From Candidatus Kaiserbacteria bacterium (GTDB lineage Bacteria; Patescibacteriota; Minisyncoccia; Phycocordibacterales; UBA2100), in the NCBI GenBank assembly GCA_028286585.1, contig JAQBRI010000005.1, positions 13,973-77,972 of the forward strand: a stretch of 64,000 nucleotides of DNA, written 5' to 3'. The translations under genes were made by a program, and so were the position numbers. Below are positions 52,991 to 55,682 of this stretch, piece after piece. The notes beneath the pieces are model-generated. The model saw only the letters and a list, made by a program, of their open reading frames with translations. It was not told the DNA's origin and ran no database searches. How positions within the stretch are numbered: position 1 is the first letter of the stretch; every line of letters begins with the position of its first letter.

Positions 52991-53144
52991 AATATTTTTT
53001 ATAAACTAACTGCTAATAGATACCCAATCCTCCCTAAGTGACTAAAAAGGTTCTAGTCATAATCTGGATACATTATAACAAAAAGGAGACCCGTTGTCAA
53101 GTGTTACTTGATAACGGGTCTTTTGGCAGGTTTCCCTGCAAGGA

Positions 53145-53660
53145 TCAGCGGTTCGATGGAATGAGCGCCTTGCACTGCTGTTTCAAGGCCTCGACGTCGT
53201 AGAAATCACGCGACATCACCTGCAACGGCAACATGTCGGGGGTTTTCTCTCCATTCCACGACGTCCGATACAAGACAGCGTCGGCAACGAGACCGTTCGC
53301 ATCAGGAACGCAGCGGGCATTGTGTACTTCGCCATCCTTGATGTTGTCGGGCACCTTGATCTGCGTGGTGCCGACTTTTTCGGTGTTCACATCGGTGCGT
53401 TTGAAAGTAACCCGCACTGCAACACCGTTGGGTGTCGCGCGTGCGTCTGCGGCACATTTCTGCATCGCTGCAATGTCGACATTCCTGAACGTCAACTCAA
53501 AGTTGGGCTTCGTCACATCGGGCCGGGACACGGTTACCGCCTTACATCCATCAGTGGTGATGGAGATAGTCGTTGGCTCCATGCCACCAATCACATCGGC
53601 GGCGAAAGCCGGAGCGGTGATCATTGCGCTGAAACCGAGTGCAAAAACAATGTTTTTCAA
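53145..53660 (-). CDS. secreted hypothetical protein (171 aa) in GC-rich island
   Basis: The product has a signal peptide (MKNIVFALGFSAMITAPAFA) and 4 Cys. A hairpin terminator (gacccgtt…aacgggtc + T-run) lies downstream at 53090–53125. Confidence 0.45.
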   Translation of the reverse strand: MKNIVFALGFSAMITAPAFAADVIGGMEPTTISITTDGCKAVTVSRPDVTKPNFELTFRNVDIAAMQKCAADARATPNGVAVRVTFKRTDVNTEKVGTTQIKVPDNIKDGEVHNARCVPDANGLVADAVLYRTSWNGEKTPDMLPLQVMSRDFYDVEALKQQCKALIPSNR

Positions 53661-53832
53661 GGGACACCTATGCTGTTGGAAGGAAAAATTTCCTTCGCTG
53701 TTATACCTCTTGTAGTATATCAGATTATACTAAAAAGTCAATAGCATTAAAATGGCTCAAAATATAGGAAATATGACAAAAGAAGAAGGCGGACAGAAAT
53801 ATTTCTGTCCGCCTTCGAAAGAGCGTTTTGCA

Positions 53833-54162
53833 TCACCTGATGCATTGGTTGCCAACTTCATGGCCGCCTTGGCTGCGACACCAGATGACGAAGTCATTAT
53901 AGGTGTCGCGCGGTTGCACGAAAGTCGGGTTACGAAACTGGCGAACTTGCCAATTTCGCTGCACCACGATCCGTTGCTGCGGAGCGACCAGTATCGGATA
54001 GTTCGGTCGAACCGGTCCCCTGGTGACAAAGCCACCAGGGCACGGGACGGTTGCCCATGCATGCGGGTTCATTGTCTCCTGCTCGCAAAGCGCCGAAGCC
54101 GGCGAAATTGCAAACAAAAGACCTACGGCGAAAGCAATGGTAATCAACGTTTGTTTCAGCAT
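53833..54162 (-). CDS. small secreted protein with C-terminal WC…GG…GNQC motif (family member 1)
   Basis: The product has a signal peptide. The C-terminus is NDFVIWCRSQGGHEVGNQCIR. A terminator hairpin lies at 53780–53810. Confidence 0.45.
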   Translation of the reverse strand: MLKQTLITIAFAVGLLFAISPASALCEQETMNPHAWATVPCPGGFVTRGPVRPNYPILVAPQQRIVVQRNWQVRQFRNPTFVQPRDTYNDFVIWCRSQGGHEVGNQCIR

Positions 54163-54174
54163 GACTTTCTCCTA

Positions 54175-54606
54175 CTATTTTCTGCATAGGTTGCCATCCA
54201 TATGGCCGCCCTGGGTGGCGCACCATCTTTCGAGAGCGGCGCGACCTCCTTCTGCATCGTTGAACCGCCTGATACCACCGGCTGCCGCAACCTGAGTTAC
54301 GGATACCTGGGGCGCAGGGGCGCGAATACACTGGTTGCCCACCATATTGCCGCCTTCACTGGTGCACCATCTGGTAAGTGCTGCAAGTCCGCCGCTTTGA
54401 TCATTGAATCGGCGAATCGAAGACGATGTTACCGCTGCTTGCACAACTGGTGCATGGGCGGCGGTAACATACGAATCAGGATCGCCGCGAACCGTTCTTA
54501 CGAACGAATTGATCGAGCCGACGACCACCGCAAATGCGATAACGCCGAGGATGATCATCCCAGCAGGGCCGGAACCCGAACTATGAGAAGCTGCATGATC
54601 TACCAT
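54175..54606 (-). CDS. membrane-anchored protein with two WC…GG…GNQC motif repeats (family member 2)
   Basis: The product has an N-terminal TM helix. The repeats are IRRFNDQSGGLAALTRWCTSEGGNMVGNQCIR and IRRFNDAEGGRAALERWCATQGGHMDGNLCRK. Confidence 0.45.
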   Translation of the reverse strand: MVDHAASHSSGSGPAGMIILGVIAFAVVVGSINSFVRTVRGDPDSYVTAAHAPVVQAAVTSSSIRRFNDQSGGLAALTRWCTSEGGNMVGNQCIRAPAPQVSVTQVAAAGGIRRFNDAEGGRAALERWCATQGGHMDGNLCRK

Positions 54607-54615
54607 TCTTGTCTC

Positions 54616-54849
54616 CTACTTAATGCATTGATAACCGTTCATGGTGCCATTTTGACTATCGCACCACTGTTTTAGGCCATCATAGCCACCGTTCTTGTAA
54701 TCGAAATGTCGAATGCCGTCCGATTGGACAGTACCGCCATACCGCGAGCCATAATAGAAGGGCGATGGCCAGTTGAAAAGCCATGCGAGGAAGAGATAAA
54801 TACTCAATGCCAGCAAAATGCCAGCAGCAGTCTGTAGTGCGCGATCCAT
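54616..54849 (-). CDS. small membrane-anchored protein with WC…GNQC-type motif (family member 3)
   Basis: The product has a TM helix followed by IRHFDYKNGGYDGLKQWCDSQNGTMNGYQCIK. It lies 9 nt upstream of member 2. Confidence 0.4.
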   Translation of the reverse strand: MDRALQTAAGILLALSIYLFLAWLFNWPSPFYYGSRYGGTVQSDGIRHFDYKNGGYDGLKQWCDSQNGTMNGYQCIK

Positions 54850-54995
54850 TGCGTTTCTCCGTTATTTGATGTGATAGAGCTCGGATAAAATTATCCGTTG
54901 TTAGTAGTATAACAGAATATAGATATTTGTCAATAGTATATAAAAAGAAGGAGTGACGACATGCGTCACTCCTTGTTGCAAGCCAATATTGGCTG

Positions 54996-55646
54996 CTACG
55001 TTGGGCGTTTAAGCTTTTCGGCAACGACCTCTCCGATCACCTGTCCCATTCTTTCGATCGAATGTTCGTTGATAATCAAATCGATTGAAGAGCCACTAAG
55101 AGCGGCTGCTGCTGGCGTTGCACCTGCTCGCACACCTTCGAGCCCTACCTGCGCACGACGAAATTGATAGTAGAGCACGTCAGGAATTGCATACCAGAGA
55201 AAGGCAGCGATTACGAGAACCGTGTTCACGTTCATCGGCGCAAGCGGAAAGCCGAATCCCAGCATCACATTCGAGGATACCGGAAACCACGACAGAATTG
55301 CGCCAACTAAGACGACAACCACTGCAATGCTTCCCAGAAAATCAAGCCATGCATACCATGCAGTGCGCGGACGTGTGTAGGCGACGTAGGTCTGATATGT
55401 ATAAATCAGACCGGCTACCGGCCAGGCGAGAACTCCCCATGGCATCACTTCGCTCCCGATCATAAACCGGAGCGAAATCGGTGCAAGGCCGGAGAGAATT
55501 CCAAAGAGAACGGCAGTTGTAACTGCCATCACAAAGAATCCGAGATAGCTATGGACTTCGCCCATGCGATTGGCAAGCGGATGTGTATGCGCAACTGAAT
55601 CGGTCATGCGAAAACTCCTTATGTAGACTTGTTTATGCCACCACAA
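54996..55646 (-). CDS. hypothetical polytopic membrane protein (4–5 TM)
   Basis: The gene heads the minus-strand string of WC-motif genes. The start is probably MTDSVAHT. Moderately high GC. Confidence 0.4.
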   Translation of the reverse strand: MWWHKQVYIRSFRMTDSVAHTHPLANRMGEVHSYLGFFVMAVTTAVLFGILSGLAPISLRFMIGSEVMPWGVLAWPVAGLIYTYQTYVAYTRPRTAWYAWLDFLGSIAVVVVLVGAILSWFPVSSNVMLGFGFPLAPMNVNTVLVIAAFLWYAIPDVLYYQFRRAQVGLEGVRAGATPAAAALSGSSIDLIINEHSIERMGQVIGEVVAEKLKRPT

Positions 55647-55682
55647 CGGTGGAAAACTAAAGTAATATTATCACAAATTATG

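Follow-up and report, generated by a model that had tools for sequence, protein, structure and literature searches.

A lineage-restricted family of small two-cysteine modules in predicted exported proteins of a Candidatus Kaiserbacteria genome

Orphan exported proteins are common in genomes of the Candidate Phyla Radiation (CPR), where much gene content is unannotated and where the interaction of Kaiserbacteria and other members with partner or host cells is poorly understood. The closest described systems for the proteins treated here are the cysteine-stabilised alpha/beta (CSab) peptides such as defensins and scorpion toxins, which need a CxxxC pattern in the helix, a CxC pattern in the strand and three to four disulfides; the designed disulfide-constrained mini-proteins of strand-helix-strand-strand (EHEE) topology (gEHEE_06, PDB 5jg9); and, as a functional class, the small secreted Cys-rich proteins of symbionts and pathogens, which were defined in eukaryotic pathogens, are heterogeneous and offer no homology to compare. 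Here a ~34-residue module with two cysteines is described from a 64,000-nucleotide stretch of contig JAQBRI010000005.1 of a Candidatus Kaiserbacteria genome (this whole stretch is called the window), in which three adjacent genes encode the module proteins p77, p143 and p109. Judged from sequence searches, the module family is a lineage-restricted orphan of a narrow Kaiserbacteria lineage, and the module, whose disulfide is predicted, is classified as a new sequence family of an already known sort, the small disulfide-stabilised extracytoplasmic mini-domains.

Three full copies and one diverged copy of the module are distributed over the three proteins, one in p77, two in p143 and one in p109. 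The consensus reads [IV]-[RK]-x-F-x4-GG-x3-L-x2-WC-x4-G-x3-[GD]-x2-C, with F, GG, L, WC, G and C as the invariant residues. The proteins and their modules are located as follows.

54616..54849, minus strand: p77 (77 aa; MDB5187688.1 / JWO50_208, 'hypothetical protein'), with an N-terminal transmembrane (TM) anchor, a ~17-aa stalk and one module
54619..54720, minus strand: module copy 1 (DGIRHFDYKNGGYDGLKQWCDSQNGTMNGYQCIK), found by regular expression and DNA pattern and modelled with AlphaFold2
54175..54606, minus strand: p143 (143 aa), with a 16-aa N-terminal tail, TM anchor, FVRTVRGDPD, stalk, module 2, a 15-aa linker and module 3
54322..54423, minus strand: module copy 2 (SSIRRFNDQSGGLAALTRWCTSEGGNMVGNQCIR), found by regular expression and DNA pattern and contained in the full-length model
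54178..54279, minus strand: module copy 3 (GGIRRFNDAEGGRAALERWCATQGGHMDGNLCRK), found by regular expression and DNA pattern and contained in the full-length model
53833..54162, minus strand: p109 (109 aa), predicted soluble secreted paralogue, with a Sec signal peptide at residues 1-24 (cleavage after ASA, before L), a Cys26-Cys41 loop, a Q/R-rich linker and the diverged module
53836..53946, minus strand: module copy 4, diverged (VRQF, an insertion, then ...DTYNDFVIWCRSQGGHEVGNQCIR), found by its match to the regular expression for the core and by alignment

A recurrent Cys motif in three adjacent minus-strand genes had been proposed in an earlier sequence-only reading of this DNA. All five open reading frames (ORFs) given in that reading were recovered in place, and a six-frame search of the whole window with the core W-C-x(2-4)-[QEN]-x-G-x(2-6)-G-x(1-3)-C gave four matches, all of them in the p77, p143 and p109 genes. 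The half-motif IRxF..GG gave three matches in these genes and one unrelated match elsewhere. With the degenerate DNA pattern F-x4-GG-x3-h-x2-WC-x4-G-x3-[GD]-x2-C three matches were obtained in the window, compared to 0.00 in 100 dinucleotide-preserving shuffles. The two cysteines are spaced i / i+12 in every copy, leaving 11 intervening residues (a distance of about 11 had been noticed before), and exactly two (columns 20 and 32) are present in all seven full module copies compared. The count of four copies holds for three full ones; the fourth, in p109, keeps the second half (…WCRSQGGHEVGNQCIR), has lost the GG and carries ~5 extra residues after VRQF. Over its last 26 residues this copy shares 35-46% identity with the full modules found in the window and in the related contig L002, and 31% with the third-genome copy E_p73. 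From sequence, the module has a net charge of about 0 to +2 and is non-amphipathic. The polypeptide always ends in a module, and no catalytic-looking cluster of conserved polar residues is present.

Searches against profile collections at E<=1 (Pfam-A, NCBIfam) assigned neither p77 nor p109 to a family and, for p143, returned TM-helix noise below threshold only; the membrane protein encoded upstream had no Pfam or NCBIfam match either. No match for the module proteins was obtained in PHROGs or PADLOC, and a profile search of the PDB sequences returned a beta-galactosidase fragment as its best match (E 0.57). Indeed, the motif matched no named domain in any of these five collections, as the sequence-only reading had supposed. 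When p143, a padded module alignment and the membrane protein were used in word-indexed protein searches, only proteins of the window and orthologues from the lineage of L002 came back, L002 being a 299-kb JGI metagenomic contig whose proteins occur in at least six samples. The membrane protein had two database relatives only, itself (JWO50_209) and its L002 orthologue. An exhaustive HMMER search of 1.84 billion representative proteins with a profile of seven modules yielded eight matches, four of which are genuine (P0002, P0003, P0004 and P0006) and all come from three lineages, those of the window, of L002 and a third represented by L008, a 530-bp ENA contig. P0005, P0007 and P0009 were rejected as low-complexity repeat proteins that share only '..QWC..', and P0008, a 2219-aa repeat protein, was rejected on its 'LYQWCRxxDGH' match to profile positions 13-27 only. 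No well-characterised housekeeping domain was matched, and the members are confined to this lineage.

Because small ORFs can be miscalled, the DNA was also scanned directly. Peptide-derived patterns gave 52 matches in the GTDB genomes, none of which was confirmed. The relaxed module DNA pattern gave 11 matches in 185,579 GTDB species representatives, all out of frame or stop-containing, 13 in the JGI metagenome contigs, all junk (a weak negative, as the contig of the known positive P0002 is absent from that collection), and none in 2.9 million viral contigs. No Rfam families were present at 47-64 kb, and literature searches on small Cys proteins of the CPR gave nothing specific.

The whole block is found in L002 in the same order, located between dnaE and fba/L25 in both genomes. 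There it comprises the membrane protein (64-65% identical), proteins of 73 aa with one module and of 142 aa with two, and a protein of 114 aa with a signal peptide, together with neighbours of 178, 487 and 170/206 aa. Orthologues of p77 are P0003 (60% identical) and P0006, that of p143 is P0002 (49-53% identical), and that of p109 lies at 10574-10918 of L002 (41% identical), with the four mature-protein cysteines kept and a fifth one within its signal peptide. In L008 the p77 orthologue is preceded by the C-terminal fragment of a homologue of the membrane protein; the co-occurrence of module genes and membrane protein in other genomes, for which a check had been proposed, could thus be observed in both relatives. 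The gene call over the p109 orthologue in L002 is in the wrong frame (10522-11004, 160 aa; the conserved signal-peptide/module ORF is 10574-10918), and the exact p109 sequence of the window is missing from the protein collection. Therefore, protein-database searches under-count the module family, and the same is to be expected for other families of which gene finders miscall a member in a segment rich in GC at third codon positions (GC3).

Housekeeping neighbours share 88-94% identity between the window and L002 and show a non-synonymous difference (pN) of 0.03-0.07. For the module proteins identity falls to 60, 53 and 41% and pN is 0.23-0.42, versus a synonymous difference (pS) of 0.71-0.81 (0.23 versus 0.71 for p77); synonymous sites are near saturation throughout (pS 0.53-0.81). 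The module genes thus change 5-10 times faster at non-synonymous sites than their housekeeping neighbours and are among the fastest-evolving genes of the block. Since non-synonymous change is well below synonymous change, they are under purifying selection. On these comparative grounds the module genes are real and conserved; they are neither an assembly chimera nor pseudogenes, the outcomes that would have counted against the sequence-only reading. Orthologous modules are reciprocal best matches (65% for p77/p73, 62% for p143a/p142a and 54% for p109/p114, compared to 41-59% between paralogues), and therefore the module duplications predate the split between the window and L002. The tandem duplication noticed earlier stands as far as the copies are paralogous; it is ancient rather than recent.

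The isolated copy 1 was modelled with AlphaFold2 from the alignment of seven modules, which resulted in a mean predicted local distance difference test (pLDDT) score of 83 and a compact chain of strand, helix, strand and strand (E3-5, H12-22, E26-28 and E31-33). The module is therefore predicted to fold autonomously as an EHEE mini-domain, which answers the modelling check that had been suggested. In this model L16, W19 and C20 lie on one face of the helix, Cys20 closes the helix and Cys32 is in the last strand, where the two would form a stapling disulfide. F6, L16, W19, M27 and I33 would make up a tiny hydrophobic core, with the GG as a predicted helix N-cap and G24-G25 and G29-N30 as predicted turns. 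A full-length AlphaFold2 model from a five-sequence alignment reached pLDDT 56 overall, showing the TM helix and, per module, a helix followed by a hairpin at pLDDT ~70-75; a fold search with this low-confidence model gave nothing usable. In the exported proteins of the neighbourhood the cysteines of the mature part are even in number and conserved (four each in p109, p171, p183 and p467). Even Cys counts have been used as a signature to infer oxidative folding of exported proteins (PMC2823432), and by that reasoning these counts fit oxidative folding.

By hydropathy, p77 and p143 each have one uncleaved N-terminal hydrophobic helix. The signal peptide of p109, judged by eye, combines K3, a hydrophobic core and an AXA-type cleavage motif (MLKQTLITIAFAVGLLFAISPASA/LC, ending …SPASA/LC, the slash marking the cleavage site), and that of its L002 orthologue, also judged by eye, ends ...SLSSLASA/QC. 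Each module was thus correctly placed behind a TM helix or a signal peptide by the sequence-only reading. As the p109 paralogue has a canonical signal peptide, export of the module proteins is plausible. Sec would insert p77 and p143 as signal anchors with the N-terminus inside and the C-terminus outside, an outward orientation suggested by their homology to p109 and by the Cys pair, and would export p109, which would be cleaved and soluble.

Our leading reading, held tentatively, is that the module proteins are surface-displayed, non-enzymatic binding knobs. It is favoured because no catalytic-looking cluster is present, the charge is near neutral, the module is C-terminal and three modes of presentation are found. 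The same knob would be shown at three distances from the membrane, on a short stalk (p77), as two knobs on a long stalk (p143) and free (p109), and it would bind a repeating surface ligand, either wall or envelope polymers of the cell itself or the surface of a partner or host cell. Fast turnover outside the fold-determining residues would be expected of surface-interaction proteins in an episymbiotic CPR bacterium. Display is also supported by the neighbourhood: the surface proteins p467 and p554 end in 'SQIPYTGFD(L/F)G' followed by a hydrophobic helix, an IPYTG-type signal resembling the LPXTG-type sorting signal, and a sortase is encoded in the window at 30281-31162.

Several observations weigh against the binding-knob reading. 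The K/R counts are about equal on both TM flanks of p77 and p143, which leaves the positive-inside rule undecisive, and p143 carries RTVRGD, with two Arg, directly after the TM helix, within a juxtamembrane motif (FVRTVRGDPD) that is invariant. No gene for an oxidase of the DsbA, VKOR or MdbA type is present within the 64-kb window, the alignment behind the fold model holds seven module sequences only, and only about three metagenomic lineages are known to have the family, so that conservation statistics are thin. The charge distribution, which favours neither orientation, and the two Arg of p143 would also suit modules that are cytoplasmic (N-terminus out, C-terminus in), with the Cys pair as a thiol/redox or metal site. 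This is considered very unlikely: in both genomes the homologous module of p109 follows a canonical signal peptide, two cysteines 12 apart on a helix end and a strand make a poor metal site, and no His or Cys partners are kept in all copies.

The genes form a sequence-predicted operon of promoter, 5' hairpin, three genes led by ribosome-binding sites (RBS) and terminator. Each gene is preceded by a GGAG site, and the intergenic gaps are 9 and 12 bp. The remaining features of the block are listed from upstream to downstream.

54996..55607 (ORF open to 55646), minus strand: upstream polytopic membrane protein, 203 aa, with ~4 TM helices, no Cys and a conserved cytoplasmic C-terminal tail
54948..54974, minus strand: intrinsic terminator of the membrane-protein gene, an 11-bp stem followed by a T-run, the stem kept by compensatory changes in three genomes
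54906..54933, minus strand: sigma-70-type promoter of the three-gene operon, TTGACA, 16-nt spacer and TATACT with extended -10 TG, 11/12 consensus
54882..54897, minus strand: short stem-loop CGGATA-ATTT-TATCCG at the predicted mRNA 5' end, seen in the sequence and the three-genome alignment
53785..53816, minus strand: strong intrinsic terminator ending the operon, a 14-bp stem with 8 G-C pairs followed by a T-run
53145..53660, minus strand: p171, secreted 4-Cys neighbour (JWO50_205), downstream, module-free and syntenic, with its own promoter at 53714-53741

When the upstream regions of the window, L002 and L008 are aligned, no position of either promoter hexamer varies and the spacing between the hexamers is constant. 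In the 5' stem-loop, read by eye in the same alignment, two stem pairs out of five differ on both sides with pairing kept (G-C to A-T and A-T to G-C), and we infer that this stem-loop is an mRNA-stabilising leader or an operator. For the membrane protein the ORF is indeed open to 55646, as given in the sequence-only reading; the probable start is at 55607 according to the NCBI annotation and the alignment with the orthologue. Its gene is a separate transcription unit, but its adjacency to the operon is conserved. The L002 orthologue of p171 is 56% identical with all 4 Cys kept. At NCBI, sequences identical to p77, the membrane protein and p171 are found under the label 'hypothetical protein' (JWO50_208, JWO50_209 and JWO50_205, respectively) in a Candidatus Kaiserbacteria metagenome-assembled genome.

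The constant adjacency of the membrane protein bears on another explanation, in which the module proteins are defensin- or bacteriocin-like effectors, antimicrobial or host-manipulating, released or presented, with a paralogue or the membrane protein as immunity factor. Small size, fast evolution and export of the proteins would suit this, as would the predicted topology, which is that of cysteine-stabilised alpha/beta peptides, and the scorpion toxin 2ck4 is among the non-significant Foldseek matches (E 9.3). However, each module would have one disulfide only and has no CxxxC/CxC pattern and no cystine knot, its charge of about 0 to +2 and non-amphipathic nature do not suit such a role, and two of the three proteins are membrane-tethered without an obvious cleavage site. 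The membrane protein belongs to a separate transcription unit, and no double-glycine leader, no C39 peptidase or ABC exporter and no known toxin or immunity domain is present nearby. Effectors of this kind are therefore regarded as improbable, and nothing was found to support the toxin/immunity function that had been offered before.

In both genomes the module genes are co-transcribed and held in fixed synteny with exported Cys-paired proteins and sortase-type substrates. This, and the graded stalk lengths, which suggest spacing elements, would also agree with internal envelope-assembly or structural factors whose modules bind each other or p171, p467/p554 or p183 as a membrane-proximal scaffold. 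The identity between window and L002 argues against this: the 41-60% of the module proteins, compared to 74-84% for p467/p554 and 88-94% for housekeeping proteins, would be unusual for a purely structural core component. As the family is absent from other Kaiserbacteria and CPR among the GTDB representatives, it is not a general part of the envelope. A scaffold role is possible, though rather doubtful.

The proteins p467 (51587-52990) and p554 (47935-49599) are paralogous and repeat-rich; p467 carries the repeats YDSGSFDTG and VIGQYDPSTG, and p554 contains at least 12 tandem 24-nt repeats (8-aa SYSPxYDS) at 48946-49387. Small signal-peptide proteins adjoin the cluster at 50336-50650 (104 aa, 2 Cys), 49706-50176 (156 aa, 7 Cys) and 50793-51344 (183 aa, 4 Cys; p183); all have L002 orthologues, and none contains the module or belongs to a known family. 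A conserved upstream element precedes adjacent genes for small secreted proteins, at 50177-50330 and 50651-50800 in the window (minus strand) and at ~14036-14091, 14515-14561 and 14955-15001 in L002. It consists of a terminator hairpin (GGCGGAAGG…CCTTCCGCC), then CCTGATTG(C/T)TATCAA…TTGATACCAGCCAGGC(A/T)CTC…GAAT with an internal palindrome, and then an AAGGAG RBS. The element is a candidate for a common operator, promoter or leader; its translation in L002 has given two called genes the same spurious N-terminus.

The composition of the block had been described as a foreign segment of 55–60% GC. Measured values are 48-57% per gene with AT-rich intergenic spacers, so the higher range is not borne out. 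GC3 is truly elevated: the module genes have 0.52-0.60 and p171 has 0.66, and further small exported orphans in the vicinity reach 0.71, compared to 0.32-0.42 in housekeeping genes; all genes concerned are orphans. An island recently acquired from elsewhere, as mobile-element or prophage cargo (for example a lysis-type cassette), could produce such an excess. Against this, the L002 orthologues show the same order and the same gene-by-gene GC3 elevation despite near-saturated synonymous sites, and genes of normal GC3 are interleaved (p467, for example, at 0.35). Around the block no integrase, transposase, flanking tRNA or flanking direct repeats were found, PHROGs is blank for the module proteins and their pattern is absent from the 2.9 million viral contigs. 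Thus, of the features of a horizontal island, atypical composition is present, and patchy presence and mobility borders are not. Because the GC3 pattern and the position between dnaE and fba/L25 are common to L002 and borders of mobile type are lacking, recent acquisition is disfavoured, and an origin as a foreign island is considered extremely unlikely. A possible cause of the GC3 excess is GC-biased gene conversion among surface genes that recombine often.

Over the window, genes of high GC3 (0.52-0.71) form a mosaic with normal ones (0.27-0.42), the former at 49706-51344, 53145-55646, 58003-59550, 60906-62126 and 34499-35801. Those at 49.7-55.7 kb encode small orphan proteins that are exported and have their Cys in pairs (except for the Cys-free membrane protein), and those further out include Cys-free membrane proteins and proteins without a TM or signal segment. 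The high-GC3 genes tend to evolve fastest, and the same genes are GC3-rich in L002.

The rest of the window has ordinary chromosomal CPR content, with UvrABC, several aminoacyl-tRNA synthetases, MurB, Ddl, GyrB, S2, EF-Ts, RF, ATP synthase beta and the sortase. One 671-aa gene of L002 (6701-8716) has two overlapping ORFs as its counterpart in the window, 55890-57071 (393 aa) for its C-terminal part and 57056-57925 (289 aa) for its N-terminal part. The split recurs in the independent Logan assembly L001, which points to a true frameshift, a split gene or a diverged middle region in this genome. At 9352-11955 an 867-aa protein with a Peptidase_S74 domain, the intramolecular chaperone of endosialidase and tail-fibre proteins, is encoded in a chromosomal context and adjoins a large orphan (11960-13447). 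At 114-4302 an HlyD-type membrane-fusion protein and a full-length AcrB-type RND transporter are encoded, a tripartite-style efflux pair that is noteworthy in a CPR genome, as the organism is thought to be without a classical outer membrane.

Several known protein types were compared with the module proteins and rejected. In p77 (MDRALQTAAG/ILLAL) and p143 (GPAG/MIILG) position +5 is L or G and not the E of type IV pilins and pseudopilins; an FTLIE-like motif is absent from both, and the pilin models of Pfam and NCBIfam had no match. Lipoproteins do not fit, as there is no lipobox and position -1 is L or Q, and spanins or holins were rejected on sequence features. A class II bacteriocin locus was dismissed because no N-terminal GG-type leader and, at 47.9-62.1 kb, no ABC/C39 or known immunity domain was found. 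Weak local echoes of C-type-lectin-like or Fib_succ_major-type domains were seen in the 'LYQWCRxxDGH' of P0008 and in a Foldseek match to the C-type-lectin-like domain of LLT1 (E 8). However, C-type-lectin-like domains have ~110-130 residues, at least two disulfides and a double-loop fold, unlike the module; the echoes span only a 15-residue stretch or a 29-column fragment, neither significant per domain, and the Pfam models miss the window proteins at E<=1.

The knottin- or defensin-like fold that the sequence-only reading had suggested checking fails on Cys count and pattern. A knottin or inhibitor cystine knot requires six Cys, and the module has two. With the CSab peptides the module would share the small exported beta-alpha-beta-beta or alpha-beta-beta unit whose helix is cross-linked to the last strand, and the AlphaFold2 model predicts their compact alpha/beta core with the helix on a two- to three-stranded sheet. 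It differs from them in having one Cys per element, in not being cationic and in being mostly membrane-tethered; membership was rejected on the Cys pattern, and the match to the scorpion toxin aOSK1 (2ck4) noted above is not significant. The small secreted Cys-rich proteins of symbionts and pathogens are alike in being short, exported, lineage-specific, fast-evolving and clustered, with an even number of Cys, but unlike them two of the three module proteins would stay anchored in the membrane of the producer.

The impact of the family is limited by its very narrow distribution over about three metagenomic lineages. Within it, the operon is a well-delimited lineage-specific surface gene set, with a conserved promoter, differently anchored paralogues and a very small, confidently predicted fold. 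In the boldest form of the binding-knob reading, which as a whole is unlikely, the module would be an undescribed natural minimal EHEE domain (~32-34 residues, one disulfide), unique to the narrow Kaiserbacteria lineage and serving as a host- or partner-recognition knob at graded distances from the membrane, and the high GC3 and fast evolution common to the module genes and the Cys-paired exported orphans beside them would reflect recombination-driven diversification of a CPR 'contact secretome' by GC-biased conversion. The predicted topology is shared with the designed EHEE mini-proteins such as gEHEE_06, and if fold and disulfide are confirmed, the module would be among the smallest natural strand-helix-strand-strand domains and a chemically synthesisable probe of what such organisms bind.

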